A stretch of DNA of 50,417 bases from a bacterium. GTDB taxonomy: Bacteria; Edwardsbacteria; AC1; EtOH8. Both the position numbers and the translations under genes were made by a program. Below the pieces are notes generated by a model that did no database searches, had not been told where the DNA came from, and was given only the letters and a program-made list of their open reading frames with translations. The stretch lies in the NCBI GenBank assembly GCA_030655055.1, contig JAURWH010000110.1:1-50417 (forward strand), read 5' to 3'. Each line of letters starts with the position of its first letter. Position 1 is the stretch's first letter. Below are positions 14,676 to 39,627 of the stretch, piece by piece.

Positions 14676-15017
14676 TCAAACTGATCTCAGGGCTTTGCTT
14701 TTCCGAACATCACGCAATGGTAACTTAGAATACGGTTGTTTTCTCGCTGTCTGTGTATTGGTCTTAGAATGTAATTTATATTTTCCAGGATTCTCGAGAT
14801 TATCTATTTCCAAATCAACATCCAGGTCTGGCCAATATAAGTGGTAACCATGCAGCAACTGGACATTTTGTATGGAATTCAAGGTCTGGTCTTTGAAATA
14901 AGGATACTGGAGAAAACTCAGAAAGTATTCTTTTTCTTTTACAAAGAGCCAAATGCCGAAGGGCGTGATATTTTCAACGCTCAATAAAATGCTTTTGCCA
15001 GGCGGTAATGATTTCAT
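14676..15017 (-). CDS. DUF2442 domain protein
   Basis: 113 aa; FGIWLFVKEKEYFLSFLQYPYFKDQTLNSIQNVQLLHGYHLYWPDLDVDLEIDNL fits the DUF2442 pattern (..W..lD.D...); AT-rich gene. Confidence 0.7.
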   Translation of the reverse strand: MKSLPPGKSILLSVENITPFGIWLFVKEKEYFLSFLQYPYFKDQTLNSIQNVQLLHGYHLYWPDLDVDLEIDNLENPGKYKLHSKTNTQTARKQPYSKLPLRDVRKSKALRSV

Positions 15018-15228
15018 CTTTGTGTTTCTCCACGATATTCTGAATATCCTTCAGTTTTCTTTGGTTTAATCCATGATTTACTGCCAGCGAGACGATGGGC
15101 TCAAGCCAGAATTTGGCTTCTCCGGTTTCGCAGGTAACATGGATGTGTATGCGTTCTTCCTCATTAGAGAGGAAATAAAAGCGATACCCTTTTTCCCGGA
15201 ATATTGACGGACTCATGCTTATAAACAA
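14974..15228 (-). CDS. DUF4160 domain protein
   Basis: 84 aa (likely start MSPSIF at 15216); GYRFYFLSNEEERIHIHV...EAKFWLEP fits the DUF4160 pattern; overlaps the downstream DUF2442 ORF by 44 nt. Confidence 0.7.
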   Translation of the reverse strand: MFISMSPSIFREKGYRFYFLSNEEERIHIHVTCETGEAKFWLEPIVSLAVNHGLNQRKLKDIQNIVEKHKDEIITAWQKHFIER

Positions 15229-15247: not shown

Positions 15248-17512
15248 TCAGCCCTTCAAAACATTCCACCATTTATGCTGCCGGTCCCGTTTTTTCTTGG
15301 CGCCGTCATCGGCATAATAATAATTATAATGGTAATAATAATCGTAACTGCCGGCCAGACCGGAGAGCTCGATCTTATTCAGCACCACGCCCAAAATATT
15401 GGCCTTGAGGTTGGTCAGAATGGTCTTGGCCCGAAGCAGGGCCCGTTTGTCGGTGGCGTGAGACTTGACCACCAGCACCAGCCCGTCCACCTGGGGGCTT
15501 AAGACCGCGGTGTCGGTGACCGTGATCACCGGCGGGCTGTCGAACAGCACCAGGTCAAATTGCTGGCTTAAGAGTTTGATCAGGTCGCGCATTCTCTGCG
15601 AGCCCAGCAGTTCCGAGGGGTTGGGCGGGATGGCTCCGCAGGTCAAAATGGAAAGGTTCTCCACCCCCGAGGGCTTGACCACTTTTTCCAGGGCCAGGCG
15701 TTCGGCCAGCAGGTTGCTTAACCCCGGTTCCCGCTCCAGTCCGAACAGCGAGTGGACCACCGGTCTTCTAAGGTCGGCGTCCACCAGCAGGGTGCGGATG
15801 CCGGACAGGGCGGTGGTGATGGCAATATTGGCGGCCGAGGTGGACTTGCCTTCGGAGGGCGCGGCCGAGGATATGACCACGGTCTTCAAGGGGTCGTCGA
15901 TCCGGGAGAACTGGATGTTGGTCCTTAGGGAGCGGTAGGCTTCCGAAACGTGGGAGCGGGGGGTGTATTTGGTGACCAGGGTGGCCGAGATCCGGGCCAC
16001 CTCGTCCGACCCATTCTTGCGAAATGTTTTGCCCTCCTCGGAATGAATGGCCGGGATCAGTCCCAGCACCGGCATCCCAAAGTTGTGCTCGATGTCCTCC
16101 ACCGTTTTCACCGAATTATCAAGCGAATCCAAAAAGAACGACAGCCCCACTCCCAGGGTCAAGCCCACCACCAGCCCGATGGCGAAGTTCAGCACCTTGC
16201 GTGGTTTGATGGGGAACTGGGGCGGCTGGGCCCGGTCTATCACCCGGACGTTCCCGATCTTGCCGGCCTCGGTGATCTTGGCCTCCTCGTGCTTCATCAG
16301 CAGCAGCCGGTAAACGCTTTCACCCACCTCCTTGGCCCGCAGCAGACGGGCCAGCTGCAGTTCCTTGTTGGGAAGCTTGGAAAGGCCGAAATCGTACTGG
16401 GACAGGATGGTCTTTAAGGCTGTTTCCCTGGCTGTCATGGTGGCCCGCTGGATCTCCAGCGGCGGGATCTGGTCCAGCAGCGACTGGATCTGGGGCATCG
16501 GCGAAAGCCGGTTCTTCTGGGTTATCTTCTGCAGTTCCTCCAGCAGCCGGGACTTGACATTGGCGATCTGGACATTAAGGTTCTTGATCTGGGGGTGGTC
16601 GGGAGCATAGCCCTTGACCTGCAGTTTGATGATCTCCATCTGCAGATTTACCAGGCTGCTGCGCAGGCTGTCGGCCATGGAGCCGGCGCTTAAGGGCAGG
16701 CTGTTCTCGGTCAAGGCGCCCTGGTCCTTAAGCTGGTCGTAGATGGCGGTCAGCCGGCCTTCGATGCTCTGGCGTTCGGTGGAGGCCGCGATCATCTGCT
16801 TGTCGGCCTCGGTGGCCCGGGACAGGATCTCCTTGCCTTCGTCGGAGAGCGAGACCACCTGGTTCTGGGACTTGAAATTTTTGATGGCCTCTTCGGCGGT
16901 ATTGAGGGTGGACTCCACCGAGGGCAGCTGGGCCTCTATGAATTTGCGGGTGGAGGAGGCCTGTTCCCGCTTGACCGAAGCGCTCCGTTCCTTGATGACC
17001 TCGGCCACCAGGTTGGCGATATTGGAGGAGGCTTCCGGGGTGGGACCCTGTACTTTCACCAGGATCACGTCGGAATCACGGATGGGTTCGGCGGTGATGC
17101 TTTTTTTGATGATCTGGGTCAGCCGGTAGCTTTGTTGTTGGGGGCTCAGGCTGCGGTCCCGTCCCCGCAGCAGCAAAGGTGAATATTCCGGGTCCAGAAG
17201 CCGGACCACTTCCTCGGCCAAGCTGCGGGACTTGATCTCCTCGATCTGGTTCACTATATAGCTCTTGCGGGAGAAGGCCTCGGAGATGTCGAAGGAGGGG
17301 AGCGGCTCCCGGCTTTGCTCAAAGATGATGGTGGTTTGGGCCTCGTAGACCGGGGGCATGGTGAAATTTGCCAGGACTATTGGCAGCACCACCCCCAGCA
17401 GACAGGCCGTTATCAGCAGCCTGCGCCGCCACAAAAGGTCTATCAGCTCGTAAATGTTGGACTCGCTGGTCCGGGTCTTTAAATCCTGGTTCAAATGTTT
17501 GGCTTTCATCAA
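15248..17512 (-). CDS. Polysaccharide co-polymerase / tyrosine autokinase (Wzc, PCP-2a-like), copy 1
   Basis: 754 aa; N-terminal TM plus Wzz-like coiled periplasmic region and a second TM (FAIGLVVGLTLGVGLSFF); kinase Walker A SSAAPSEGKSTSAANIA, A' LLVDADLRRP, B DLVLFDSPPV; Tyr cluster YDYYYHYNYYY at the C-terminus. Confidence 0.9.
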   Translation of the reverse strand: MMKAKHLNQDLKTRTSESNIYELIDLLWRRRLLITACLLGVVLPIVLANFTMPPVYEAQTTIIFEQSREPLPSFDISEAFSRKSYIVNQIEEIKSRSLAEEVVRLLDPEYSPLLLRGRDRSLSPQQQSYRLTQIIKKSITAEPIRDSDVILVKVQGPTPEASSNIANLVAEVIKERSASVKREQASSTRKFIEAQLPSVESTLNTAEEAIKNFKSQNQVVSLSDEGKEILSRATEADKQMIAASTERQSIEGRLTAIYDQLKDQGALTENSLPLSAGSMADSLRSSLVNLQMEIIKLQVKGYAPDHPQIKNLNVQIANVKSRLLEELQKITQKNRLSPMPQIQSLLDQIPPLEIQRATMTARETALKTILSQYDFGLSKLPNKELQLARLLRAKEVGESVYRLLLMKHEEAKITEAGKIGNVRVIDRAQPPQFPIKPRKVLNFAIGLVVGLTLGVGLSFFLDSLDNSVKTVEDIEHNFGMPVLGLIPAIHSEEGKTFRKNGSDEVARISATLVTKYTPRSHVSEAYRSLRTNIQFSRIDDPLKTVVISSAAPSEGKSTSAANIAITTALSGIRTLLVDADLRRPVVHSLFGLEREPGLSNLLAERLALEKVVKPSGVENLSILTCGAIPPNPSELLGSQRMRDLIKLLSQQFDLVLFDSPPVITVTDTAVLSPQVDGLVLVVKSHATDKRALLRAKTILTNLKANILGVVLNKIELSGLAGSYDYYYHYNYYYADDGAKKKRDRQHKWWNVLKG

Positions 17513-17591
17513 AGATGTTGATAATTGGGCAAAAAGTCAAATCTCTTAACGGACCTTCTTCTCTGTTCGATTTCTGGGAACCTTTGCCGGA

Positions 17592-18062
17592 TCAACGGTT
17601 CCGGGAGATAAGATAGTAAACGTTGGCGATGACTGCCATGTCAGCCACGAACGAGATCGCATCCTTCCAGAAAAAGCGGGCATTGCGGGGGACCATCACG
17701 GCATCGCCGGGCCGCATCACCAACAGGGAATCGGCGCGTTCCCTGCCCAGATACTTATCCAGATTTACTTTTTTGGTGCGGGGCATCTGCCCCAATGCGT
17801 GCGAGATCTTGACCCGTCCCAAAGCCGCATACTGGGTCGGTCCGCCAGCCTTGGAGATCACGTCCAGTATGGTGGAACCGTCCGGCACCCGGTAGACCCC
17901 GGGGGTGTTGACCTCCCCCCAAACATGGACCTCTATCTCCAGCTGCTGGTTTTGACCCAGGTAAAAAGCATCTTTTTTGAAGTCGGCCTGCTGGGCAAGA
18001 ACATTCCCGGCCAAGAGTATCAGAGCGGTCCAAAGAATTCCGGTTAGAAATGGTTTGTTCAT
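17592..18062 (-). CDS. Short SLBB-domain polysaccharide-export (OPX-like) protein, copy 1
   Basis: 156 aa; signal peptide; VWGEVNTPGVYRVPDGSTILDVISKAGGPT SLBB signature; GDAVMVP; hydrophobic C-terminal helix ISFVADMAVIANVYYLI. Confidence 0.7.
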   Translation of the reverse strand: MNKPFLTGILWTALILLAGNVLAQQADFKKDAFYLGQNQQLEIEVHVWGEVNTPGVYRVPDGSTILDVISKAGGPTQYAALGRVKISHALGQMPRTKKVNLDKYLGRERADSLLVMRPGDAVMVPRNARFFWKDAISFVADMAVIANVYYLISRNR

Positions 18063-18183
18063 TGTTGCACCTAATCAGAAAGACGCAGGGGCAAATAGAT
18101 GGGTTAAGTTACCCTTGGCAGCCTTGGCGTCTTTGCGGTTCAAATTATCCCATGCGGATTGCAAGGAATGTAATAAGCTACTG

Positions 18184-19917
18184 TTACTTGCCCTTTTTCA
18201 AACGGTCTTTGGTCTTGCCCAGATATTCCTTGGCCTTGGCGTGGCCGGGGTCTGCCGCCAGCACCTGCTTGAAGGTTTTTTCAGCCGGGGCATATTCCTC
18301 GTTCATGAATTGTTGAACACCTTTCTTGTAAAGCGCGGTCACGTCCTCCGCCGATATCTTGGCAGGTTTAGCAACGGCCGGCGGGGTTGGCTTGGGGGTG
18401 GCAGCGGCTTTTGGCTTTTCCGCAGCCGGTGCCGCCGGAGCGGCAGGAGCGGGTGGCTGATAAGCCACCGGGGCGGGGGGCTGGGCAGCGGGGGTCCTGG
18501 TCTTCCTGCCCGAGGCCGGAGCCGGCGGCAGGGCCGCCGCCACGATCTCTTTCTCCATCGTTATCTGGCGCTCGGTCTCGGCCTTGTCCTTGAGGGTCAG
18601 TTCTTCTTCAAAGGGACGGTATCCCTCCAGAGTTACCGATATTTTATATTTTCCCGGAGGAACCACCGTTCCGAACTGCCCGGTAACGGGATCGACGCTG
18701 ACATCTCCGGCCCGGCTGCTGTTAAAGGAAACTGTGGCCGGCAGAGGCTGGCCCGAGGCCCGGTCCACCACCTTGCCCTTGAAGCCGGCGGTCTTCCGCT
18801 TCAGGGTCAGGTCCCATTTCTCCACCTTGCCTTCCTTGACATTGATCTTGCGCTCCAGCCAGCGGTAACCGTTGGCGTATATGTGGACCTTGTACTCGCC
18901 CGGGGGAAGCTTGGCCTGGTAATCTCCGGCCTCGTTGCTGACCAGTCCCGGAAGGTCGGAGCCGGGGAAGGTGATCATGCCCTTCATGGGAACCCCGGTC
19001 TCGCGGTCCTTGATCAGGCCGGCCACCGCGCCGCCGATCGTCCCGGAGACGGCCTTGCCCGCGGCGGCGGGGAAATCAAATCCCAGGATCAGCTGCCAGG
19101 GGGCGGAGGCCCGGGTCAGTCCAATGTCGCAGGCCAGGTTGATCCCTAAGAACGGCAGGGGGGAATACCTGAGGCCGGGGGTCACCCGCAGTTCTGTCCG
19201 GTCTGCCCCCCGTCCCCGCAAGACCAGATCATCGGGGACCGAATCTTTTTGGGCTCCCAGCCGGTATTCACCCGAGGCTTCCAGAAAGGCGGAAAGGTTT
19301 TCCTTGAATGAATACTCGGCCCCGGCCCCGAAAGGTAGTTGGGGGCGCTCCTCGCCCCGGGTCAGAAAGCCGGCATTGATGAAGACCATGGTCTGTCCCA
19401 GGTTGATGTCGGTCAATAATTTTGCGCCGAAGTCCAGCTTCCCGGTCTGGGACGGGCCGTCCTGGTATTTTTCCTTATTCATCGGTACTGAAATTGTGGG
19501 CATGAACCCCAGGTCCAATTTTCCGGCCATCAAAGGCAGGCAGTACTTTGCCGATATCACCGCATCGCCGGGACAGCCCAGGCTCTTGTCGGCTGAGGCG
19601 CTGTCCAGGACCGCCACCGTCCATTGCTCGGCATGGCCCACTCCGGCCGCCATCAGGGAAAGGTTCTTTACCGGTACATAATACAGGGTGTTAAAGCTCC
19701 AGGCATCAAGCAGGGCGTCCTGGTTTCCCGACTGCCCGTAGTAGTTCTGCCCGGAATAGGATGTCAGGGCCGCCAGGCTGCGCCCCCCATATCCGATCCC
19801 GGTCTTGGCCGACTGCAGATGGATAAGTCCCGGACCCCCAAAGACAGGGTAGCGGGCGGCCCCAGCCAGCGAAGCTAAAGCGAAGGTCAGACCCAGTAAA
19901 ATGTACGGCCTTTTCAT
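18184..19917 (-). CDS. Secreted protein X1: N-terminal beta-barrel-like domain, 2x CarboxypepD_reg-like domains, Pro/Ala-rich linker, C-terminal single-TPR-like tail
   Basis: 577 aa; signal peptide MKRPYILLGLTFALASLAGA; about 290 aa of alternating-hydrophobic strands ending GFDFP; two G.V.D..tG.P...V.......D..G.Y......PG.Y modules; PPAPVAYQPPAPAAPAAPAA linker; YKKGVQQFMNEEYAPAEKTFKQVLAADPGHAKAKEYLG tail. Confidence 0.6.
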   Translation of the reverse strand: MKRPYILLGLTFALASLAGAARYPVFGGPGLIHLQSAKTGIGYGGRSLAALTSYSGQNYYGQSGNQDALLDAWSFNTLYYVPVKNLSLMAAGVGHAEQWTVAVLDSASADKSLGCPGDAVISAKYCLPLMAGKLDLGFMPTISVPMNKEKYQDGPSQTGKLDFGAKLLTDINLGQTMVFINAGFLTRGEERPQLPFGAGAEYSFKENLSAFLEASGEYRLGAQKDSVPDDLVLRGRGADRTELRVTPGLRYSPLPFLGINLACDIGLTRASAPWQLILGFDFPAAAGKAVSGTIGGAVAGLIKDRETGVPMKGMITFPGSDLPGLVSNEAGDYQAKLPPGEYKVHIYANGYRWLERKINVKEGKVEKWDLTLKRKTAGFKGKVVDRASGQPLPATVSFNSSRAGDVSVDPVTGQFGTVVPPGKYKISVTLEGYRPFEEELTLKDKAETERQITMEKEIVAAALPPAPASGRKTRTPAAQPPAPVAYQPPAPAAPAAPAAEKPKAAATPKPTPPAVAKPAKISAEDVTALYKKGVQQFMNEEYAPAEKTFKQVLAADPGHAKAKEYLGKTKDRLKKGK

Positions 19918-20001
19918 TTTTAAACCCTTAAATTTTGAGATACCTTGATTACATTATTTGTACGGCGCCGCCAATGGCCGGTGTTCCGTGGGACCGGAAA
20001 T

Positions 20002-21687
20002 TTATCCTTTTGATTTTTTCAGACGGTCCCTGGTCTTGCCCAGATAATCCTTGGCCTTGGCATGTCCGGGGTCGGCTGCCAGCACCTGCTTGAAAGTCTG
20101 TTCGGCTGGGGCATATTCCTCGTTCATGAACTGCTGGACGCCCTTTTTGTAAAGTGCAGTCACTTCCTCGGCCGACATCTTGGGGGCGGCCGGGGTGACT
20201 GGTTTAGCCGCTGTTGTTGCCACTATTGGTTTAGTCGCGACAGGCTTGGGTTTGACCTGGGCAGAGGTAACTGACGGTGTCACCGGCTTGGGCGGAACCG
20301 CCGCCTGAACCAGGGGCTGCAGGGAGACATTCTGCTGCAGGTCCTCCTTGTCCTTGATGGTCAAGGCAATATTTTGAGAGATGTAACCGGGAGCGCCCAC
20401 CGTCAAGGTATAATTTCCGGGAACCAGCTTGGCCAGATACTGGCCCGAGAGAGGATCGGTGTTGAAGAGTTGCTGGCCGTCGGTCCCAAAGGACAGGGAG
20501 GCCATCATTGGTTTTTGTCCGGAGGCATCGGTGACTTTCAGTGTCAGCTGCCCCAGTTTTTTATTGAGGTCCAGCGCCCAGCCGGCATCCTGTCCGGCTT
20601 TTACTTCCAGCTCCCTGGTGATGGTGCGGTATCCGTCGGCTTTGACCTGCACCTTGTACCGGCCGGGTTTGAGTTTAAGCCGGTAGCTTCCTTTGGCGTC
20701 GCTGATGACGGCCGGGATATCCTGGCCGGGGAAGGAGATGATCCCCTTGATGGCGGCTCCGGAAGAGTTATCCTTGATGATGCCGGCCACCGCTCCCCAC
20801 AGCGGAGTCACCAGCGACCTGCCGGCCGCCGCCGGGAAATCTATCCCGATGACAGCCTGCCAGGGGGCCGCGGCCCGGCTTAGCCCGATGTCGCAGGCCA
20901 GGTTCAGCCCCAGGTAAGAGACCGGGGCAAAGCGCAGTCCTGGGGTGACCCTGGCCTCATTCCGGTCGGCTCCCCGTCCCCGCAGGATCTGGTCAGTGCT
21001 CAAAGAATCTTTTTGGGCGCCCATCCGCAGTTCGGCCGAAACTTCCAAAAATCCCGAGAAGTTCGGGCTGAATCCATACTCCAATCCCAGTCCCAATGGC
21101 AGCTGGGGGCGCTGGTCGCCCCGGGTTAAAAAACCCGCGTTCACTAAAACCGTCAGGTCGGTATAATTGAAGTCCGATAATATCTTTCCCCCGAAATCCA
21201 GCTTGCCGCTTTGCGACGGGGAATCCTGATATTTGGTGCGGCTCATCGGTATTGTGACCATGGGCATCAGCCCCAGGTCCCACCGGCCGTTCTGCAGGCT
21301 CCACTGGTATTTCAGGGCCACCAGGGCATCTCCGGGACAGCCCAGGGATCTGTCGATGGTTTGCGTGGATGAGACCGGACTTTTCACCGTCCATTGTTCG
21401 GCGTGGGCCAGTCCGTTGCCGATCACTGCCATCCCTGGCATCGGGGAGTAGCTGATGGAATTGTGATTCCACAGGTCCGTGAAGGCATCATCCGTCCCCT
21501 GCAGGCCGTAGAAGGTCTGGTTGGAATACGAGGATACCGCGGCCAGGCTGCGGTATCCGAATCCCGGACCGGCCTTGGCCGACTGCAGGTGCACCAGTCC
21601 CGGTCCCCCCAACAAGGGGAACTGGGTGGCCAGGGCGGCGGAGGCCGCCAGCCCCAGGCACAAAGACAGGAATAATTTTCGTTTCAT
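20002..21687 (-). CDS. Secreted protein X2, paralog of X1 with the same architecture
   Basis: Start taken at MKRKLFLSLCLGLAASAALA (ATG 21687, GGAGG RBS upstream; the track ORF extends to 21768); collinear with X1; last ~58 aa nearly identical to X1. Confidence 0.6.
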   Translation of the reverse strand: MKRKLFLSLCLGLAASAALATQFPLLGGPGLVHLQSAKAGPGFGYRSLAAVSSYSNQTFYGLQGTDDAFTDLWNHNSISYSPMPGMAVIGNGLAHAEQWTVKSPVSSTQTIDRSLGCPGDALVALKYQWSLQNGRWDLGLMPMVTIPMSRTKYQDSPSQSGKLDFGGKILSDFNYTDLTVLVNAGFLTRGDQRPQLPLGLGLEYGFSPNFSGFLEVSAELRMGAQKDSLSTDQILRGRGADRNEARVTPGLRFAPVSYLGLNLACDIGLSRAAAPWQAVIGIDFPAAAGRSLVTPLWGAVAGIIKDNSSGAAIKGIISFPGQDIPAVISDAKGSYRLKLKPGRYKVQVKADGYRTITRELEVKAGQDAGWALDLNKKLGQLTLKVTDASGQKPMMASLSFGTDGQQLFNTDPLSGQYLAKLVPGNYTLTVGAPGYISQNIALTIKDKEDLQQNVSLQPLVQAAVPPKPVTPSVTSAQVKPKPVATKPIVATTAAKPVTPAAPKMSAEEVTALYKKGVQQFMNEEYAPAEQTFKQVLAADPGHAKAKDYLGKTRDRLKKSKG

Positions 21688-21778
21688 TGAAAAACCTCCC
21701 CTCCCACATTGTTTTTGGGGGATTGAGTTTAAAAACTGCAGCTGTTGCCTGCGGAAATAATTGATCAAATATGAAGGC

Positions 21779-24010
21779 CTATTTTTTATTCTTGCGTTTC
21801 CCCTTTTCCCCCTTTTTTCGCTGGCCGTCCTCGTAGTAATAGTGGTAGTAATAACTGTAACCGGCCAGCATGTCGGAACTGATGTTGTTCAGCACCGTGC
21901 CGGCGATCTTGGCCTTGACGTTGGTCAAAAGACCCTTGGCCCGCCTGGCGGCCTCGCGGTCGGTTTTGCCCGAGTGTATAACCAGCACCACGCAGTCGGC
22001 TTCGGCTGCCAGTACCGCGGCATCGGTGACGGTGATCACCGGGGGGCAGTCAAGGATAACCAGGTCGCAGCAGTTCTTCATCTCCTGGATCAGGCGCTTC
22101 ATCTTCTGCGAGCTCAACAACTCGGAAGGGTTTGGAGGAATGGTGCCGGCCGGCAGAATGAAAAGGTTTTCAATGTCGGTGGAGACCATGGCCTTCTGCA
22201 GGTCGCCGCCCTTCACCAACAGTTCGGTCAGCCCCGGTTCCTGGGGTATGCCGAAAACTCCGTTGACCATGGGGCGCCGGAGGTCGGCGTCCACGATCAA
22301 AGTGCGGGATCCGACCTGGGCCATGGTGATGGCCAGGTTGGCGGCGGTGGTGGTCTTACCTTCCGACGGCCCGGAGGAGGTCACCAGGATGGTCTTCATC
22401 GGGGCGTCGGGGTTCAGGAACTGCAGGTTGGTGCGCAGTATCCTATAAGCTTCCGAAATGGGCGATTTGGGCAGGTGGTGGCTGATCAGCCGTTCGGCAA
22501 TGGAAGTGGCACCATTGGTGGTCCTGCCGTTTCCCGCCTGGCTGGCCACATCCTCCTGGTCTATGGCCGGGATCAGACCCAGCACCGGCAGGGCCAAAAA
22601 CTGTTCGATGTCGTGAATGTTCTTCAGCGAGGTATCCATGTATTCCATCAGCAACACCAGTCCTATTCCCAAAGCCAGCCCCAGCATTCCGCCGAACAGG
22701 ATGTTGAGTTTGCGCCGGGGGCCCACCGGCTCCTTGGGAACCTGGGCCTGGTCGATTATCTTGACGTTGCCCAGTTTGCCGGCTTCGGAGATGCGGACCT
22801 CTTCGTATTTCTCCATCAGCATCTTGTAGATATTGTCGTCCAGCTCAAACTGGCGGGTCAGCCGGGCCAGCTCCACCTCCTTGGGCGGGATGGCTTTCAA
22901 TTTCTCCAGATAACCGTCCACCACCCTTTGCTGGGCCAGCTCCTTGGCCTTGTAGGTCTCAATTTCCACCTGAAGGTCCAGGATCTTTACCACCAATTCC
23001 TCCGACAGCATTATCGGGTCAATGCCCCCGTTCTTCTGGGCCACGATCTTGGAGATCTCTTCCTTAAGCCGGGATTTGGTATTCTCAATTTTTTTGTTCA
23101 GTTCCTTCATCTTGGGATGGTCGGCCGGAAATCCCTGGGAGGTCATGGTGGCCATCTGGGTCTGCAGGGTCAGAAGGTCCTGTCGCAGGCCGGAAGCCAG
23201 AGGGGAAGAGACCTGGGACACATTCTCCAGCATGTTCTTTTTCTGGAAGTCCAATTGGTCCTGGAGATAGGCCAGCCTTTTTTCCGCCGATTCCCGCTCC
23301 ACTTTGGTCAGGTTGTACTGTGATTCAAATCCGGTGAGCTTGTCGATCAGAAATTTTGATTCGTCGGAAAGCGAAACCACCTGGTTGGTCTGCTTGAAAA
23401 GGCGCAGCTGGTTTTCCCCGCCGAACAATCTTTTTTCTATCACCGGCAGCTGGACCTCCAGAAAGCGCCGCACCTCCGAAAATTCTCCCCGGCTGTAGCT
23501 TAAGTTCCGGGCGATGTAAGCCTGGCCCACGGTATTGGCGATGGCCGCCGCCTGGGCCGGATCGCTGCTGGTGGCTATCACCGTTATGATGTCGGTGGTC
23601 CGGGAAGCAAGCACGGTGGTGGAAAACATGATGTTCTCGGTCAGCAGGGTGTCGGCCAGGAAGCCCAGCTCCCGGGCATCCGGGCGGGCCTTCAATATCA
23701 GGGCCGCCTCGCCGGCCAGGCTGCGGCTGCGGATGATCTCCACCTGGTTGTTGATCATGTTGCGGCTCTGTTCGGTCTCCATCATCATACCCAATATGGG
23801 CTTGTTGTCCCGCTGGACCAAAAGGCTGACGCTGGCTTCGTAGATGTTGGGCTGGCGGAAAGAAAAGATGATGGAGGAAAGGAGCACCGTCAGAAATGCC
23901 CCCAGCACTATCCACCGCCGCCGCATTATTATCCGCAACAGGTCCTGTAATCCCGGCTGGGAGGACTCGGTGGAGGTCATTTTACCTTGAGTTGAATTAT
24001 TTTTCATCAT
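21779..24010 (-). CDS. Polysaccharide co-polymerase / tyrosine autokinase (Wzc, PCP-2a-like), copy 2
   Basis: 743 aa; same architecture as copy 1; Walker A SSGPSEGKTTTAANLA, A' LIVDADLRRP, B DLVILDCPPV; C-terminal YSYYYHYYY followed by a Lys-rich tail. Confidence 0.9.
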   Translation of the reverse strand: MMKNNSTQGKMTSTESSQPGLQDLLRIIMRRRWIVLGAFLTVLLSSIIFSFRQPNIYEASVSLLVQRDNKPILGMMMETEQSRNMINNQVEIIRSRSLAGEAALILKARPDARELGFLADTLLTENIMFSTTVLASRTTDIITVIATSSDPAQAAAIANTVGQAYIARNLSYSRGEFSEVRRFLEVQLPVIEKRLFGGENQLRLFKQTNQVVSLSDESKFLIDKLTGFESQYNLTKVERESAEKRLAYLQDQLDFQKKNMLENVSQVSSPLASGLRQDLLTLQTQMATMTSQGFPADHPKMKELNKKIENTKSRLKEEISKIVAQKNGGIDPIMLSEELVVKILDLQVEIETYKAKELAQQRVVDGYLEKLKAIPPKEVELARLTRQFELDDNIYKMLMEKYEEVRISEAGKLGNVKIIDQAQVPKEPVGPRRKLNILFGGMLGLALGIGLVLLMEYMDTSLKNIHDIEQFLALPVLGLIPAIDQEDVASQAGNGRTTNGATSIAERLISHHLPKSPISEAYRILRTNLQFLNPDAPMKTILVTSSGPSEGKTTTAANLAITMAQVGSRTLIVDADLRRPMVNGVFGIPQEPGLTELLVKGGDLQKAMVSTDIENLFILPAGTIPPNPSELLSSQKMKRLIQEMKNCCDLVILDCPPVITVTDAAVLAAEADCVVLVIHSGKTDREAARRAKGLLTNVKAKIAGTVLNNISSDMLAGYSYYYHYYYEDGQRKKGEKGKRKNKK

Positions 24011-24017
24011 ATTACAG

Positions 24018-24557
24018 TTACCTCACTCCGGCTACGACCAGATAAGCGGTGACCACCACCGCTGCCTGGCTTAAAAAAGATACCGCCCGCATCGTTTTGT
24101 GATAAAGGGTGGTGGGTACAATCACTACGTCGCCCTGTTCCATCATAGGCACCAGCGACTTGTCGGCCTTTCCGACATATTTGGAAATGTTAACCTTCTG
24201 GGTCTGTCCTGGGCCGTAAACCCCACGTACCAGTTTTACCCTGGAAAGGGCGGCATCCTCGGTGGGGCCGCCGGCATAAGAAATCAGGCCCACCACATCG
24301 GTGGCCACCGGCACCCGGTAGCGGCCAGGCCGGGTGACCTGTCCCCATATCTGGACCTCGATCAATACTTCGCGCTCATAGATGTCCCCGGAGGTTCCGG
24401 CCTGTCCTTGAGCCCGTTCCAAGTATCCGCCGGCCTGGGAAAAAGCCAGGCTGGCTCCGCCGAAAAGCCAGCAGGCTATCAGGGATGCCGCCTTAAATCT
24501 CAAGTTTAAAAATCTCACCGCCCAAAGTCTCCTTAATGTAGCGTTGAATTGTTGCAA
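24018..24557 (-). CDS. Short SLBB-domain polysaccharide-export (OPX-like) protein, copy 2
   Basis: 179 aa (TTG start as called by the track; start uncertain); IWGQVTRPGRYRVPVATDVVGLISYAGGPT SLBB signature; GDVVIVP; hydrophobic C-terminal helix AAVVVTAYLVVAGV. Confidence 0.7.
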   Translation of the reverse strand: MQQFNATLRRLWAVRFLNLRFKAASLIACWLFGGASLAFSQAGGYLERAQGQAGTSGDIYEREVLIEVQIWGQVTRPGRYRVPVATDVVGLISYAGGPTEDAALSRVKLVRGVYGPGQTQKVNISKYVGKADKSLVPMMEQGDVVIVPTTLYHKTMRAVSFLSQAAVVVTAYLVVAGVR

Positions 24558-24590
24558 ACCCTTTTAGGACAAACAGGTTATAATCAAATA

Positions 24591-24619
24591 AAATTAACAC
24601 ATTTCAAGGGCAATGTCAA
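24591..24619 (-). promoter_or_regulatory. Candidate sigma-70-type promoter for the minus-strand export-gene block
   Basis: On the minus strand: TTGACA (24619-24614), 17-nt spacer, TAATTT (24596-24591); about 35 nt upstream of the TTG at 24557. Confidence 0.3.
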
Positions 24620-27526: not shown

Positions 27527-29038
27527 ATGAACGACCAAAAATCCCGCCAGGAGCTGGAATTTTTGCTGTCCTTCAGCAAATCGCTTTCATCCACCCTGGA
27601 TCAAAGCCAGCTGTTGGACATCATCATTGAATCGGCCAAGACGCTGACTGCGGCCGAAGCCAGCTCCCTGCTGCTGCTGGAACAGGCCACCCAGAACCTG
27701 CATTTTGCCCATGCCACCGGCGAGGTCTCGGAGGAGCTGAAAAAACTATCCATCCCCATGGGACAGGGCATCGCCGGGTGGGTGGCCCGGGAGCAAAAGC
27801 CCCAGATAGTGAACCAGACCGAGCAGGATGAACGCTGGTACAAGGGCATCGATGAAAAGACCAAGTTCACCACCAAGTCCCTGTTATGCGTACCGTTGCT
27901 TTCCAATGGCCAGACCATCGGCGTTATAGAGGTGCTGAATAAAAAGGACGGCCAGCAGTTTGACCAGCAGGACCAGGAACTGCTTTTGAAGTTCGCGGAT
28001 CTTGCGGCCCAGGTGCTGGAGAACGCAGACAAATACAGCCGCTTAAAGGATGAGAATGTTCAACTGCGCGATGAGCTGGCCAGCCGCTATACCATCACCG
28101 GGAAAAGCCAGGCGGTGGAAGAGGTGCTGGGCCTAGCCCGCAAGGTGGCTTCCGGAAATACCACAGTGTTGTTGCAGGGCGAGAACGGGACCGGCAAGGA
28201 ACTGCTGGCCCGTTTCATCCATTACCAAAGCCCCCGGGCCGAAAAGGCTTTTGTGGCCGTCAACAGCGCCGCCATCCCGGTGGAACTGCTGGAATCCGAG
28301 TTGTTCGGACACGAGAAGGGCGCCTTTACCGGGGCCAGCTGCCGGCGCAAGGGCCGGTTTGAAATGGCGGCCGGCGGCACCATCTTCCTAGATGAAGTGG
28401 GGGACCTGCCCCAGGCAATTCAGGCCAAGATCCTGAGGGTTTTGCAGGAGAGGGAATTCGAGCGGCTGGGCAGCAGCGAAACCATCAAAGTGGATGTCAG
28501 GATCATCGCCGCCACCAACAAGGACCTGCTGCAACTGGTGAAAGCCGGGTTGTTCCGGGAGGACTTGTATTACCGCTTGAACGTTTTTCAAATATTCCTG
28601 CCGCCCCTGCGCCAAAGGACGGAGGACATCCCGGTCCTGGCCGGGCATTTTCTGGAACGTTTTGGCCGGGAGACCAAAAAACAGGTGCGGGGATTTACAG
28701 AAGAGGCAGCCAAGGCCATGCAGAGTTATTCCTGGCCGGGAAACATCCGCGAACTGCAGAATGCGGTGGAGAGGGCGGTGGTGCTTAGTTCCGGCCAAAC
28801 CATAACCCTGCAGAACCTGCCCCGGCTGGTGGACGATACTTCCACCAGGGATGGCATTCCGCCGACCATGACCTGGGACGGCGCCCAGGATGTATTCAAG
28901 CGGGAATACATGATAAAAGCGCTGGAGTCGAATAATTGGAATCAAAGAAAAACCGCAAAAATATTGGACATTCAGCCATCGTATCTTTCCCGCCTTTTAA
29001 GAGAGCTTAACATTATCCGCCCCCGCAACAGAGAGTGA
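27527..29038 (+). CDS. Sigma-54-dependent transcriptional activator (GAF sensor, AAA+ domain, Fis-type HTH)
   Basis: 503 aa; N-terminal GAF-like region (GIAGWVAREQKP...CVPL...GVIEVLNK); Walker A GENGTGKE; GAFTGA loop (GHEKGAFTGA); Walker B IFLDEVGDL; C-terminal WNQRKTAKILDIQPSYLSRLLRELNI HTH. Confidence 0.92.
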   Translation: MNDQKSRQELEFLLSFSKSLSSTLDQSQLLDIIIESAKTLTAAEASSLLLLEQATQNLHFAHATGEVSEELKKLSIPMGQGIAGWVAREQKPQIVNQTEQDERWYKGIDEKTKFTTKSLLCVPLLSNGQTIGVIEVLNKKDGQQFDQQDQELLLKFADLAAQVLENADKYSRLKDENVQLRDELASRYTITGKSQAVEEVLGLARKVASGNTTVLLQGENGTGKELLARFIHYQSPRAEKAFVAVNSAAIPVELLESELFGHEKGAFTGASCRRKGRFEMAAGGTIFLDEVGDLPQAIQAKILRVLQEREFERLGSSETIKVDVRIIAATNKDLLQLVKAGLFREDLYYRLNVFQIFLPPLRQRTEDIPVLAGHFLERFGRETKKQVRGFTEEAAKAMQSYSWPGNIRELQNAVERAVVLSSGQTITLQNLPRLVDDTSTRDGIPPTMTWDGAQDVFKREYMIKALESNNWNQRKTAKILDIQPSYLSRLLRELNIIRPRNRE

Positions 29039-29465: not shown

Positions 29466-29481
29466 TGGCATAGTTTTTGCA
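29466..29481 (+). promoter_or_regulatory. Sigma-54 (-24/-12) promoter
   Basis: TGGCAT-AGTTT-TTGCA matches TGGCAC-N5-TTGCW at 15 of 16 defined/spacing positions, with GG and GC exactly 12 nt apart; 39 nt upstream of ATG 29520; directly downstream of a sigma-54 activator gene. Confidence 0.7.
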
Positions 29482-29519: not shown

Positions 29520-29900
29520 ATGCATTGTGATAATGAAAATAAAGATATAGGGTCTTTCATCAAAAGATCAATTCACAGTTTTACTGCGCTGGACATTGTT
29601 TTGCATTATGCCAGACAACCAAACGCGCAGGAAACCCCCAAAAGCATTTCCAAGCTTTTGGGAAAAAGTCATGATGAAATCAGCTGTTGTTTGGAACAAT
29701 TCGTCGAGGCCAAAGTCCTGCAGCGGGTGAAAAAGAAAGGCGAGCACTGGTACCTTCCCTCCTCCGACATAAATAAATCCGAGATACTAAAATTGCTTAA
29801 ACAGTGTTTGGACGACAAAGATAAAAGAATAAAAATGCTCTCGATGGCCTTAGCATCCATTAGGGAAAAAACCCCCGGTAAAAGGAGAAAAACCTCATGA
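29520..29900 (+). CDS. Small hypothetical protein, winged-helix-like
   Basis: 126 aa; AT-rich gene; FTALDIVLHYARQPNAQETPKSISKLLGKSHDEISCCLEQFVEAKVLQRVKKKGEHWY resembles a MarR/ArsR-type wHTH; ATGA overlap with the next gene. Confidence 0.45.
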   Translation: MHCDNENKDIGSFIKRSIHSFTALDIVLHYARQPNAQETPKSISKLLGKSHDEISCCLEQFVEAKVLQRVKKKGEHWYLPSSDINKSEILKLLKQCLDDKDKRIKMLSMALASIREKTPGKRRKTS

Positions 29901-32900: not shown

Positions 32901-33556
32901 AGTATCCCTATTTCTATCAGATCAACAGCCTTACTTCCGGGTTGTCACCCAGGACAGCAGCCCAGGCTTTGGCCGTAGAACTTTCCGAGTTTGCCTGCCA
33001 GGGCGGGAGCGAGGGGATAACTTTGACCTGGCAAACCGCCAGCGAGAATAACAATTATGAATGGCTGATAGAACGATCAACCAGTCCGGAAGAAGACTTT
33101 CAGAATGTAACTACCATCAAAGCCGAGGAAGGCTCACCGACCGGCCGCCAGTACAGCTACACCGACGCGGCGGTATTGCCCAATACCACTTACTATTATC
33201 GCCTGGGGGACAAGGATCTGAGCGGGCAGGTGACCTGGCACGGGCCGGTGATGGCGGTAAGCGGCGGCCTGGTCTACGACAAACTGCAGTTGATGCCCTG
33301 CCACCCCAACCCGTCTTCGGGGGCGGTTGCCATAAAGTATGCCCTGCACAAATCAGGAACGGTGGCGTTAAATATTTACGATATCTGTGGGCGGAGGGTG
33401 AATACTTTAGACCAGGGTCAAAAACAAAGTGGAGCTTACAGCCTGACCTGGAAGGGCGACGACAGCCAGGGAAGGATGCTGCCGGCCGGAGTGTACTTTT
33501 ACCAGCTTAATTTTAACGGAGCCAGCCTTACCCAAAGAATGGTATTGTTGAGATAA
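29897..33556 (+). CDS. Large secreted protein: seven-repeat propeller-like N-terminal region, Fn3-like and CBM9/DOMON-like middle, T9SS type-A (Por_Secre_tail/FlgD-Ig-like) C-terminal sorting domain
   Basis: 1219 aa; signal peptide MKKIVGLFFALMALASSAMA; seven copies of a [VA]W.D.R.G..D[IV][FYW]G motif; C-terminal HPNPSSGAVAIKYALHKSGTVALNIYDICGRRVNTL...LTWKGDDSQGRMLPAGVYFYQL is the T9SS CTD pattern. Confidence 0.8.
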   Translation: MKKIVGLFFALMALASSAMAASDTVKIFLWDNDAGETAQKSPAAVMDENYGSRYVWADSRDGNFNIYGRIWERKPEAATDAFLVNRIRVDEHLQDQPDVAGTTGDFFFVVWQDSLLKTGELYQPYVCKLDKLGKPMTDEVRVTEKPVGNAKYPKIAVNKRTQDFVVVWQDNRDGSWDVWGRLFDNKCEPISPDIKLNDDGLKVPHVLPAVSFTDAGIAVAWQDNRDGTSKSDIFYRYFKPDFSPLMAGKRVNSDVERFHVTPSVAASDTGYFTVVWLSFENHLYGDVFAQRFYPDGTANQANIKVNLSTAPVACRIPTVTMGIDNVSFWTSWADSAISTDKYQIRARYYDRYGRFNTTVKTVNQNPANGQWAPDVCRFGSWFSVAWLDSSRANGRGDVFGQYYVLNQDKDDTLDAVEVNYNVTADKAAGRTIWYHPKKDYDNPATSGWNEDPIAEPESLYIPLDSAYVLALKERNIPNQQFVQITNTSVLEYMWRDKQGKLNSSAEYNLCLLDLGYAEDGSSAGTIEDEQIDTLIAFANTADKCLLAAGNDFGEMYYTDSLFDFFGSKYVGPGNPAETGNIQKINGIAGTFTEGMYFNYPFQQAPDNSVDIIEPYATGSQLLMQSDGSKLTWGRATSYSDYYKGAKASNHNNVYLTFSIGSLTNGVFPSTASELTRRILAYQGFNVEPEPIVDLVDSVYTGATEGSIELSWMAVSDDNVAEKATKYWLKYTKYNSTASDLGKMSSEVDFIDTGMTYYQAWTPAAADVREKKIVYGFAPADTVIFSLKAGDESSPVRWGTLGNEPRIVVYGDTVTPHAVRLGYGTSPNFNGCVNDFCKSERMGTRLSDTLFTTWDASNLYLGYGGCDWRTAGDMFIYFDTRTGGADSTCTYNTGDSCSGFDPAFRPDFCLIIENGTTAVLKKATGSKTWVDSIASYSTSYLSLDSINKYNYLEVQVPFAYLKYTVGNVFKYLVLCNNETTEHSWNAFPITNNIGKDAKAPVAKYPYFYQINSLTSGLSPRTAAQALAVELSEFACQGGSEGITLTWQTASENNNYEWLIERSTSPEEDFQNVTTIKAEEGSPTGRQYSYTDAAVLPNTTYYYRLGDKDLSGQVTWHGPVMAVSGGLVYDKLQLMPCHPNPSSGAVAIKYALHKSGTVALNIYDICGRRVNTLDQGQKQSGAYSLTWKGDDSQGRMLPAGVYFYQLNFNGASLTQRMVLLR

Positions 33557-39528: not shown

Positions 39529-39627
39529 ACAACATTTAATGATAAGTCTAAATTGGGTCAAAGTCAAACAAAATATGCGTAAATTTTGCTTGTTTTTTCC
39601 GGCAGTTTGGGTTATCCTAATAGTGCA

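Follow-up and report, generated by a model that had tools for sequence, protein, structure and literature searches.

The described export systems closest to the locus analyzed here are WzaB-WzpB-WzcB and EpsY-EpsX-EpsV of Myxococcus xanthus, in which a Class-3 (D1D2) OPX protein and a separate 18-stranded, AlgE/PgaA-like barrel form a composite translocon that works with a PCP-2a protein (PMC9601211, PMC9603273, PMC12819527). The ternary complex of PCP, short OPX protein and barrel has been demonstrated for WzcB-WzaB-WzpB (PMC12819527), and in many short-OPX/barrel couples the PCP is the only polysaccharide gene nearby (PMC9601211). In the group 1 capsule system of Escherichia coli (2j58, 7nhr, 9r64), the Class-1 OPX protein Wza is a four-domain lipoprotein, the amphipathic D4 helices of which form the outer membrane pore. 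The synthase-dependent systems (PgaA, BcsC, AlgK/AlgE) combine barrels of 16-18 strands with a long N-terminal TPR array and use neither a PCP kinase nor an SLBB protein.

The window, i.e., the whole stretch of DNA analyzed, is an entire contig of 50,417 bp from an uncultured TA06/Edwardsbacteria-type bacterium. Like the M. xanthus systems, it encodes a Wzc-type PCP kinase (denoted C), a short SLBB periplasmic protein that does not span the outer membrane (A) and a separately encoded, predicted outer membrane barrel (X), with the OPX-like and barrel genes in synteny.

Organization of the locus

Six minus-strand open reading frames were confirmed in the order A2-C2-X2-X1-A1-C1 (Table 1), at the positions and with the domains given in the first-pass annotation: profile-HMM searches against Pfam and NCBIfam recovered SLBB in A, Wzz, GNVR and kinase domains in C, and CarboxypepD_reg/PEGA in X. 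The flanks that it named, lipocalin and transketolase on one side and DUF4160/DUF2442 on the other, are also recognized by Pfam. Because the paralogs share 51% (X1/X2), 41% (C1/C2) and 38% (A1/A2) identity, the six genes are old duplicates and not assembly artefacts. The gap between A2 and C2 is 7 nt, no convincing terminators were seen between the six genes, and a consensus match located just upstream of A2 is a possible promoter for the whole block. X2 might alternatively start at a TTG at 21768.

Table 1. Genes of the block and their parts, with positions in the 50,417-bp contig.
Feature	Position	Strand	Basis
A2, SLBB-only protein, 179 aa	24018-24557	-	ORF and SLBB match
C2, PCP-2a / BY-kinase (Wzc-like), 743 aa	21779-24010	-	Pfam/NCBIfam
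X2, predicted barrel protein, 561 aa from ATG	20002-21687	-	ORF; architecture via identity to X1
X1, predicted barrel protein, 577 aa	18184-19917	-	ORF, AF2 model
A1, SLBB-only protein, 156 aa	17592-18062	-	ORF, SLBB match, model
C1, PCP-2a / BY-kinase (Wzc-like), 754 aa	15248-17512	-	Pfam/NCBIfam, Wzc alignment
Candidate block promoter, sigma-70-like -35/-10 (TTGAAA-16-GATTAT)	24580-24607	-	consensus match only
X1 signal peptide, GGPGLxHLQSAK motif and predicted 12-stranded beta-barrel, residues 1-292	19042-19917	-	AF2, Foldseek, conservation
X1 two transthyretin/CarboxypepD_reg-PEGA Ig-like domains, residues 296-455	18553-19032	-	Pfam, AF2
X1 disordered Pro/Ala-rich hinge, residues 456-520	18358-18552	-	AF2, homolog comparison
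X1 three-helix TPR-like tail, residues 521-577, pLDDT above 90	18187-18357	-	AF2
C1 C-terminal Tyr cluster Y723-Y733, YDYYYHYNYYY	15314-15346	-	translation
C2 C-terminal Tyr cluster Y718-Y726, YSYYYHYYY	21833-21859	-	translation
A1 C-terminal helix, residues 128-156, putative membrane anchor	17595-17681	-	Kyte-Doolittle 1.6, hydrophobic moment 0.06

The kinases

Both C proteins are intact tyrosine autokinases of the Wzc type (PCP-2a). Both match Wzz, GNVR and AAA_31/ParA in Pfam and the tyrosine autokinase model TIGR01007 in NCBIfam (E 1e-60 to 1e-63), and the Walker A, A' and B motifs align in register with those of the solved E. coli Wzc (E 5e-61). C1 has transmembrane helices at residues ~29-56 and 439-465 and intact Walker A, A' and B motifs, and its Tyr-cluster tail reads SYDYYYHYNYYY in translation; in C2, the transmembrane helices are at ~31-53 and 434-458, the periplasmic domain comprises ~380 aa and the kinase is cytoplasmic. 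The Wzc alignment and the translations agree with the motifs and tails originally noted for both kinases. The full architecture and the catalytic motifs are those of the E. coli system but, unlike in the latter, neither the Wzb phosphatase nor Wzx/Wzy genes are adjacent.

The SLBB proteins

The sole Pfam/NCBIfam matches of A1 and A2 are SLBB/SLBB_2. In A2, a signal peptide precedes a single SLBB domain, and the C-terminal helix is hydrophobic. A1 has an SPase-I type signal without a lipobox and, at residues 42-124, an OPX-type SLBB domain; a conserved RNARFFWKD motif then leads into a hydrophobic helix that ends in RNR. For the SLBB domain of the A1 model, the best PDB match is the Class-3 OPX protein WzaB (9n9a; E 3e-7, 32% identity, rmsd 1.9 A), followed by Wza (7xff, 2j58) and Wza-Wzc complexes (9r64), with the SLBB domains of ComEA and NuoF scoring far below. 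It superposes on D2/D3 of Wza at ~2 A rmsd, and Wza likewise has an SLBB domain followed by a C-terminal helix. Of the domains of OPX proteins, D2 resembles the modeled fold most.

Nevertheless, A differs from the M. xanthus OPX proteins in lacking the D1 domain and the lipid anchor and in having the C-terminal hydrophobic helix, and from Wza in having a single domain and a non-amphipathic helix. Pfam/NCBIfam searches of A1 and A2 found no Poly_export domain, Pfam gave no match to Wza_C (PF18412), and inspection of the signal region found no lipobox. Across the family, the helix has a Kyte-Doolittle value of 1.5-2.0 (1.2 in the two most divergent members), a hydrophobic moment of 0.06-0.19 and an RNR/RNK end; judging from these properties, it is probably a non-amphipathic stop-transfer anchor in the inner membrane. 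These features rule out A as an OPX protein in the published sense. Of the mini-OPX identity that had been proposed for it, the OPX-type SLBB fold stands, whereas the Poly_export domain and the lipid anchor are missing.

The predicted barrel proteins

Each X protein contains two CarboxypepD_reg/PEGA domains recognized by Pfam, preceded by an N-terminal part of ~290 aa without a Pfam match. The AF2 models are of moderate confidence (pLDDT 72-76) and, for X1, predict that this part is an outer membrane beta-barrel of 12 long strands which, in Foldseek, matches FapF and the COG4313 channel Pput2725 (5o65, 4rl8; TM 0.6-0.69, ~270-290 columns), with the same strand number and size; BcsC is a weak match at rank 49. 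The membrane barrel anticipated in the first-pass annotation is thereby supported, but its barrel-TPR label fits only in part, the "TPR" being merely a three-helix unit. By this 12-stranded, FapF/COG4313-like model, X is not a porin of the Wzp/EpsX/AlgE type with 16-18 strands. The M. xanthus barrel also lacks the long periplasmic Ig-Ig-hinge-TPR arm of X. The resemblance to FapF and COG4313 has its own limits: the identity is merely 11-13%, with no match to a Pfam family, X has no fap operon context, and it carries C-terminal Ig/TPR domains whereas FapF has an N-terminal coiled coil and a plug. Since X2 is 51% identical to the modeled X1, its layout is likely the same, with a signal peptide, a predicted 12-strand outer membrane barrel, two Ig-like domains, a Pro-rich linker and a three-helix TPR-like tail.

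The barrel part of X1 closes with a conserved WQxxLGxDFPAAAG motif and, as in OmpA, an aromatic beta-signal-like motif (LGFDF) terminates the last strand, with an Ala/Pro hinge coming next. Unlike the 8-stranded OmpA, X has 12 strands, two Ig-like domains and a TPR-like tail, and X1 and X2 lack the OmpA domain; however, a genuine OmpA domain (PF00691) is present in X homologs at 29% identity, inserted after the Ig domains and before the TPR tail, i.e., in the position of the X1 hinge, and TPR_1/TPR_2 matches fall on the equivalent tail of distant homologs. Because this peptidoglycan-binding domain occupies the hinge position, the Ig-like domains, hinge and TPR-like tail of X are likely to be periplasmic. 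A barrel joined to a periplasmic helical-repeat module that bridges toward the inner membrane machinery is also found in PgaA, BcsC and AlgK/AlgE, which differ in the features described above.

The tails of X1 and X2 are 88% identical in the window, and within-genome comparison of the paralogs gives 86-96% identity for the tails vs. 57-59% for the barrels. In the close relative L001, the tails carry substitutions common to both paralogs. In the relatives, the X1 and X2 tails show concerted evolution.

Phyletic range and neighborhoods

A word-based search yielded 85 clusters at 90% identity for X and 61 for A, nearly all from TA06/Edwardsbacteria, and the X barrel is carried by ~9 clusters at 50% identity among 1.84 billion representatives. 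By this measure, X and A are confined to TA06/Edwardsbacteria relatives in nearly all clusters, and the X, A and C families have this narrow range in common and are usually adjacent. In the neighborhood census, X and A are in the same block at every locus with usable flanks and are adjoined by C in 12 of the 16 distinct genomes, so that the conservation of the neighborhood, raised as a question at the outset, is supported to this extent.

The two A-C-X sets that had been proposed as units, however, do not hold. The trees of A and C are congruent, the A1 clade going with the C1 clade and the A2 clade always with the C2 clade, and the two genes overlap by 4 nt in L009 and L012. The close relative L004 retains X2-X1-A1-C1 and lacks A2-C2, and five loci from four species (L002, L003/L006, L007, L008, L026) have X-X-A without an adjacent kinase. 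In four genomes, X-X-A of this kind is located in a housekeeping context (mnmE, gltX, glnS); in the sole locus mapped, the kinase gene is next to dnaA-dnaN, at a distance of 40 kb. The co-evolving units are the A-C pairs and the tandem X-X pair. The persistence of X2 without A2-C2 and the concerted evolution of the tails are compatible with the mixed assemblies that had been envisaged. Points in favor of shared use of the X pair are the gene set of L004 and the tail identities together with the shared L001 substitutions.

Polymer assembly genes

Among 39 further ORFs that were scanned with Pfam and that cover the plausible genes of the window, none is a glycosyltransferase, PGT, Wzx, Wzy or LMW-PTP (Wzb) by this criterion, as had been stated for these 50 kb. 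A PHP-domain ORF (38779-39567, minus strand) resembles HisJ/PolX-type PHP proteins and was rejected as CpsB for that reason. An unannotated polytopic membrane ORF ~20 kb away (44670-45845, plus strand) has six hydrophobic stretches, two of them long enough for two transmembrane helices (6-8 helices altogether), and no Pfam or PDB match; that it is a cryptic Wzy is formally possible. In Pfam-annotated L001, no assembly genes were found within 10 kb of the block.

X-A-C loci have Polysacc_deac_2 upstream and an NAD-epimerase/dehydratase and a GFO_IDH_MocA oxidoreductase downstream. L023 and L025 share the gene order X, A, UDP-GlcNAc 2-epimerase, Wzc and UDP-sugar dehydrogenase, and L025 continues with DegT aminotransferases, acetyltransferases, a 456-aa membrane protein with 10 transmembrane segments and a GT-A-like gene. 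Altogether, at least five loci have sugar-nucleotide enzymes beside or within the module. The uncoupling from polymer assembly inferred in the first-pass annotation thus holds for this contig and the 10-kb flanks in L001 but, because the module of a sister lineage heads a cluster of sugar-nucleotide, membrane-protein and GT genes, is lineage-specific.

Functional interpretation

We lean, if only slightly, toward the view that the block encodes a stripped-down, lineage-specific apparatus for trans-envelope polysaccharide export in two partly redundant copies. An inner membrane Wzc oligomer would work with a ring or collar of the cognate A protein, tethered to the inner membrane via its C-terminal helix, and the periplasmic SLBB domain of A would handle the nascent chain. 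X, with its barrel in the outer membrane, would supply the exit and the anchor; its periplasmic arm would pass the peptidoglycan and dock on the A/Wzc assembly, making up for the D1 domain and lipid anchor that ordinary OPX proteins have and A lacks. The two X proteins probably cooperate, either by forming a hetero-oligomer or via a tail partner common to both, and might serve either A-C pair, whereas the polymer would be assembled by Wzx/Wzy-type genes elsewhere in the genome.

Several considerations count against export of this kind. To our knowledge, every established polysaccharide porin has 16-18 strands, which is unfavorable for a 12-strand barrel as a glycan exit; FapF moves polypeptides and COG4313 proteins hydrophobic molecules. 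Oligomerization of WzaB needs the lipid anchor that A lacks, and if the A helix sits in the inner membrane, A could not contact the outer membrane directly. Further points against it are that neither assembly genes nor a phosphatase are visible on this contig and that the AF2 models reach moderate confidence at most.

With its barrel, Pro/Ala hinge and periplasmic domain, X has the layout of OmpA and, given the OmpA domain of its distant homologs and a barrel of merely 12 strands, could be a structural tether or docking platform that links the outer membrane, the peptidoglycan and the inner membrane machine without being an exit pore. Wzc and A would then act in polymerization and chain-length control, and the polymer would leave via another porin or stay periplasmic or cell-wall-associated. 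The kinase-free X-X-A loci amid housekeeping genes (L002, L003, L007, L008, L026) and the envelope-biogenesis context of L023 and L025, where X follows shortly after an Omp85/BamA gene (directly in L025), point the same way. Nevertheless, X is always accompanied by A, the protein with the OPX-type SLBB domain, and usually also by Wzc. The annotated neighborhoods showed no other porin gene of the 16-18-strand kind, and a gated channel would be consistent with both the conserved N-terminal GGPGLxHLQSAK segment and the FapF-like fold. We consider this set of proposals, taken jointly, unlikely.

It appears quite improbable that X, A and C handle a non-polysaccharide polymer, such as a protein fiber or poly-gamma-glutamate, or that Wzc is mainly a signaling kinase and its adjacency incidental. 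The amyloid exporter FapF is the best structural match of the X barrel, a PGA_cap (CapA-like) gene is divergently upstream of X-A-C in three species and this contig has no detected glycosyltransferases, but the Wzz/GNVR domains and SLBB folds of the OPX type occur specifically in glycan pathways, the sugar-nucleotide enzymes accompany the module, neither fap-like genes nor cap synthetase genes were observed, and A and C co-diversify, which argues against incidental adjacency. It is also very doubtful that A is a minimal Class-1-like OPX protein with C-terminal helices forming a Wza_C-like outer membrane pore and X as an accessory (e.g., a Wzi-like anchor or lectin): the SLBB domain is directly followed by a 27-residue helix, in the order of D3-D4 in Wza, and no other part of the family is conserved as strongly as this helix, with its conserved Asp and Asn, but it is uniformly hydrophobic with the end typical of an inner membrane stop-transfer anchor, Wza_C and the lipobox are missing, and a single SLBB domain without D1 would leave outer-membrane-embedded A out of reach of Wzc.

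The occurrence of X-X-A in a housekeeping context without a kinase fits a more general envelope role for X and A. Returning to polysaccharide export, the module is most likely a variant of the composite OPX/barrel translocon, encoded away from the polymer-building genes, which published surveys were unable to detect because they were seeded on PF02563.

The six-gene block and its kinases

The six minus-strand ORFs described in the first-pass annotation are all present, with the same boundaries, in the order A2-C2-X2-X1-A1-C1, where A is an SLBB protein, C is a Wzc-like kinase, X is a predicted outer membrane barrel protein, and the numerals denote paralogs (see the table of features below). 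Profile searches against Pfam and NCBIfam assign SLBB domains to the A proteins, Wzz (PF02706), GNVR (PF13807) and P-loop domains to the C proteins (C1, 754 aa; C2, 743 aa) and CarboxypepD_reg/PEGA domains to the X proteins. The paralogous pairs appear to be old, given the identity of 51% between X1 and X2, 41% between C1 and C2, and 38% between A1 and A2. There is a sigma-70-like promoter match ahead of A2, and no convincing terminators were found between the six genes.

Both kinases match the BY-kinase model TIGR01007 at 203–212 bits (cut-off 108), and C1 aligns with the solved Escherichia coli Wzc with E = 5e-61. The Walker A, A' and B motifs are in register with those of E. coli Wzc and the Tyr-cluster tails are present in both proteins, as originally reported. 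Two transmembrane helices enclose a periplasmic domain of ~380 aa. Judging from sequence, C1 and C2 have the PCP-2a/BY-kinase architecture of Wzc and Etk (PCP hereafter refers to the Wzc-type partner of OPX proteins).

Features of the window and of the encoded proteins. Positions are nucleotides of the window unless residues (aa) or another locus are indicated
Feature	Position	Strand	Description
DUF2442/DUF4160 gene pair	14676-15228	-	flanked by C1 and the saccharopine dehydrogenase gene
Six-gene block	15248-24557	-	A2-C2-X2-X1-A1-C1
X1 mature N-terminus (aa 22-38)	~19806-19854	-	RYPxxGGPGLxHLQSAK
Sigma-54 activator gene	27527-29038
Sigma-54-type site	29466-29481	+	TGGCATAGTTTTTGCA, 1 mismatch
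ORF	29520-29900		small, DUF4423-like
ORF	29897-33556		1219 aa, T9SS C-terminal sorting domain
Cyclase gene	33623-37399	-	1258 aa, adenylate/guanylate cyclase-AAA_16-TPR
cNMP-binding protein gene	37840-38295	-	small
PHP ORF	38779-39567	-	262 aa, adjoins lpxK
Polytopic ORF	44670-45845	+	391 aa, follows a gene for a PBP4-type D-Ala-D-Ala carboxypeptidase
X1 barrel	aa ~42-282		12 long antiparallel strands (AF2)
X1 Ig-like sandwiches	aa 296-455		two (AF2)
X1 hinge	aa 460-520		disordered, Pro/Ala (AF2)
X1 three-helix unit	aa 523-576		confident (AF2)
A SLBB domain	aa 42-124		AF2
A C-terminal helix	aa 128-154		AF2
C1 transmembrane helices	aa 29-56, 439-465
C2 transmembrane helices	aa 31-53, 434-458
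Remote C1-type Wzc gene	L024 10001-12259		directly after dnaA-dnaN

Other genes of the contig

The 39 further ORFs scanned are the plausible genes of the window, i.e., of the entire 50,417-bp contig, and, in agreement with the initial claim that polymer assembly genes are missing here, none of them encodes a glycosyltransferase (GT), a phosphoglycosyl transferase, Wzx, Wzy or an LMW-PTP. No gene for a CpsB-type or LMW-PTP phosphatase turned up on the contig. The PHP ORF was rejected as a CpsB-type Tyr phosphatase given that its NCBIfam matches are to HisJ/PolX-type PHP proteins, all far under the cut-offs; because further long ORFs on either strand overlap its frame, the gene call itself is uncertain. 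The polytopic ORF contains six hydrophobic stretches, two of which are long enough for two transmembrane helices (6–8 in total), and produced no match in Pfam (E<=5), NCBIfam (E<=0.01) or among PDB sequences; conceivably, it could be a cryptic Wzy-like (or Wzx) protein.

The DUF2442/DUF4160 pair is missing from the otherwise syntenic locus of a close relative (L001, one of the 26 loci, L001–L026, fetched from related genomes) and hence looks like a small, toxin-antitoxin-like islet inserted in the window genome. Control of the block by the neighboring sigma-54 activator was considered and rejected: there is no sigma-54-like site near the block, and such matches are overall fewer than expected by chance. 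The sole near-consensus site in the window lies just downstream of the activator gene and precedes the ORFs for the DUF4423-like and T9SS-sorted proteins, a layout suggestive of an operon for secreted proteins that is under sigma-54 control and unconnected with the block. The cyclase and the cNMP-binding protein may form a cyclic-nucleotide signaling pair.

X proteins: a predicted 12-strand barrel with a periplasmic arm

In X1 (577 aa) and X2 (561 aa), the two CarboxypepD_reg/PEGA domains are located behind an N-terminal region of ~290 aa that has no Pfam family match. The AF2 model of X1, built with 40 homologs (pLDDT 75.7; ~80 in the barrel), predicts a 12-strand barrel in this region, in line with the original proposal that it is a membrane barrel. 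In a Foldseek search of the PDB, the barrel matches the 12-stranded FapF channel (E = 3e-9; TM-score 0.6–0.69, normalized to the target) and also the COG4313 channel, at a sequence identity of 11–13%; there was no match to the 16–18-strand polysaccharide porins, and BcsC came up only at rank 49. Thus, as far as the model goes, X would share the barrel fold of FapF and COG4313, but belongs neither to their sequence family nor to the fapA-F or hydrocarbon-degradation context; no fap genes were found in the X neighborhoods examined.

The last strand of the barrel ends in a conserved LGxDF-PAAAG motif which, we presume, resembles the barrel-to-hinge junction of OmpA. Homologs with 29% identity (L023, 697 aa; L025, 701 aa; P0272; P0273) retain the X architecture, with an OmpA domain (PF00691) replacing the hinge and TPR_1/TPR_2 matches on the tail. 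The presence of this peptidoglycan-binding domain in distant homologs places everything after the X barrel in the periplasm. Against this background, X could be an OmpA-like tether or dock, as opposed to a pore, an alternative that we consider unlikely; in the reading preferred here, the barrel is a putative pore.

The most conserved stretch of X is the mature N-terminus, located ahead of the first barrel strand and modeled with low confidence; by analogy with the plug helix of FapF, it may serve as a plug or as a docking peptide. Within the six-gene genomes, the tails of X1 and X2 are 86–96% identical, the barrels 57–59%, and the Ig domains 37–40%; together with the substitutions common to both paralogs in L001, these sequence comparisons point to concerted evolution of the tails. 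Short stand-alone relatives (L017–L019, e.g., P0084 of 374 aa), encoded in the same genomes, show the reversed order, with N-terminal CarboxypepD_reg Ig-like domains and a C-terminal PF13505 OMP barrel, and match X via the Ig-like domains alone; no homolog of X, A or C was found within 10 kb of them.

SLBB proteins lacking the Poly_export domain

In Pfam and NCBIfam, A1 (156 aa) and A2 (179 aa) match SLBB/SLBB_2 only (PF10531 in A1/A2, E = 6e-13 and 1e-10), with no match to Poly_export (PF02563) at E<=0.01, and the NCBIfam OPX models align to them over the SLBB part only. In an alignment of 28 members, the single SLBB domain follows only ~15–20 residues after the signal peptide, which is of the SPase-I type, with AQ/SQ-type sites; most members have no Cys at or near the cleavage region, i.e., no lipobox. 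The top PDB match of the A model (pLDDT 72) in Foldseek is the Class-3 OPX protein WzaB (9n9a; 32% identity, rmsd 1.9 A), followed by Wza and Wza-Wzc complexes, with the SLBB domains of ComEA and NuoF far behind, which identifies the A domain as an OPX-type SLBB. OPX proteins are defined by a Poly_export domain (D1) followed by SLBB (D2), the N-terminal Poly_export/PES domain (PF02563) being common to all of them (PMC9603273). Hence the designation of A as a mini-OPX protein holds for the fold, but the absence of Poly_export puts A outside the published definition. An N-terminal lipobox and acylation are a feature of Class 1 OPX proteins and are also required for WzaB function (PMC12819527).

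The C-terminus of A is extremely conserved across the same alignment (PRNARFFWKDAxxxxADxAxIxNVYYLISRNR). Its terminal helix has a Kyte-Doolittle hydropathy of 1.5–2.0 (1.2 in the two most divergent members), a hydrophobic moment of 0.06–0.19 and a basic C-terminus, and there is no match to Wza_C (PF18412) in A1 or A2. Uniform hydrophobicity and the low moment disfavor an amphipathic pore helix of the Wza_C type, as in Class 1 OPX proteins; by its sequence, the helix would better fit an inner-membrane stop-transfer anchor. It is accordingly quite improbable that A builds a Wza-like helical pore in the outer membrane, with X as an accessory: the helix is not amphipathic and the lipid anchor is absent. 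The conserved RNARFFW motif can be likened to the RR and FF motifs of WzaB (PMC12819527), although this is only an analogy.

Distribution and gene neighborhoods

The 85 clusters of X and the 61 of A come from the same organisms, which carry the labels candidate division TA06, Candidatus Edwardsbacteria or UBP2. Searched exhaustively with a profile, 1.84 billion representatives yielded only 10 clusters with the X barrel, one of them an artifact, so X is a very narrow family. The artifact, P0271 (4320 aa, 32 barrel-profile matches), is an Ala/Thr/Val/Ser-rich Ig-repeat autotransporter that was rejected as an X homolog on account of its composition. A literature search on the envelope or exopolysaccharide biology of TA06/Edwardsbacteria turned up nothing relevant.

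Gene arrangements at X loci, drawn from 26 loci, some of which duplicate each other
Arrangement	Loci	Remarks
A2-C2-X2-X1-A1-C1	window, L001, L005	identical flanks in L001
lipocalin-X2-X1-A1-C1	L004	without A2-C2
A-C-X-A-C	L012	one X
X-A-C	L010/L022, L011/L020, L015/L021, L016
A-C-X	L009, L014	at contig ends
X-X-A	L002, L003/L006, L007, L008, L026	without kinase, among mnmE, gltX, glnS

X and A share a block at all loci with usable flanks, and in 12 of the 16 genomes C lies next to them. In one Edwardsbacteria genome with the kinase-less arrangement (L026), a C1-type Wzc is encoded ~40 kb off on the same 706-kb contig. Downstream of this kinase gene comes one for a GFO_IDH_MocA oxidoreductase, and the position of the kinase directly after dnaA-dnaN is unusual for a capsule-type kinase.

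Neighbor-joining trees divide both A and C into two clades that are congruent between the families: A2 invariably goes with C2, often with a 4-nt overlap, and A1 with C1. The two kinds of X copy, a-type and b-type, travel as a pair, whether or not A2-C2 is present. The natural units are therefore the A-C pairs and the X-X pair, and the division of the block into two triplets (A2-C2-X2 and X1-A1-C1) proposed in the first-pass annotation is at odds with both the neighborhood census and the trees.

Link to polysaccharide and proposed mechanism

The X-A-C loci are preceded by genes for Polysacc_deac_2 and PGA_cap proteins and followed by genes for an NAD-epimerase/dehydratase and a GFO_IDH_MocA oxidoreductase. 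In a sister lineage (L023, L025), the Wzc of which shares 51% identity with C1, the genes are arranged as (BamA)-X-A-UDP-GlcNAc 2-epimerase-Wzc-UDP-sugar dehydrogenase, followed by an oxidoreductase/hexapeptide acetyltransferase and, in L025, by genes for DegT aminotransferases, a 456-aa protein with 10 transmembrane segments (the size of a flippase or polymerase) and a weak GT-A-like protein; presumably, this resembles a cluster for a diacetamido-uronic-acid (Wbp-like) pathway. These contexts suggest that the module belongs to glycan biosynthesis and that its separation from assembly genes in the window is probably a lineage-specific rearrangement: the uncoupling noted originally applies to the window contig and to the Pfam-annotated L001, but not to the sister lineage. 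Uncoupled export modules are not unprecedented, given that a PCP is the only nearest polysaccharide gene in 287 of 486 short-OPX/barrel couples (Schwabe et al.; PMC9601211). Given the sugar-gene contexts and the co-diversification of A with C, a substrate other than a polysaccharide, or a merely incidental adjacency of the kinase, is very unlikely.

We propose a partnership between each Wzc oligomer and the cognate A protein, the SLBB domain of which would be periplasmic, on an inner-membrane anchor. The outer membrane barrel would come from X, along with an arm that spans the periplasm, docks on the A/Wzc assembly and stands in for the D1 domain and lipid anchor of an ordinary OPX protein. 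X1 and X2 probably act together, possibly as a heteromer able to serve either A-C pair, and the polymer assembly genes would be encoded elsewhere in the genome. As a whole, this mechanism, in which all contacts between the proteins are conjectural, appears to us slightly better than an even bet.

Relation to known export systems

Among known systems, the Class-3 OPX/porin/PCP translocon of Myxococcus xanthus comes closest in function (PMC9601211, PMC9603273, PMC12819527). The block shares with this composite OPX/beta-barrel translocon (Wzp/EpsX) the synteny of genes for a barrel, a short OPX-like protein and a PCP, but neither the Poly_export domain nor the 16–18-strand (AlgE/PgaA-like) porin, both of which define that system, is present. 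The PCP partner and the OPX-type SLBB fold are kept, D1 and the lipid anchor are dropped, and the porin is replaced by a predicted 12-strand barrel that carries a periplasmic arm of its own. From these predictions, the block would work like the composite translocon while being built from different parts.

It is possible, if doubtful, that this amounts to a fourth architecture of polysaccharide export in diderms. In such an architecture, the periplasmic conduit would consist of the arm with which X spans the periplasm (12-strand barrel and Ig-Ig-hinge/OmpA-TPR) and of a Wzc-bound, D2-only SLBB collar anchored in the inner membrane, in place of an OPX lipoprotein anchored in the outer membrane, and a shared hetero-oligomeric X1/X2 exit would serve two Wzc/SLBB pairs, hence two polymers, with the assembly genes elsewhere. 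The makeup of the block would surprise specialists, but it introduces no new principle and is that of a predicted system from uncultured bacteria.

The composite OPX/porin translocon was recognized only in 2022, with biophysical proof in 2026, and all surveys of it have been seeded on the Poly_export domain and 16–18-strand porins; surveys seeded on Poly_export cannot see a module of the type described here. The natural variants (six genes, X-A-C, A-C-X-A-C, X-X-A with a remote kinase, with or without the OmpA domain) make up a comparative series for the essential contacts. If the module functions as proposed, the minimal needs of PCP-coupled export would be looser than current models assume, and domain-seeded censuses would under-count export systems in uncultured phyla.
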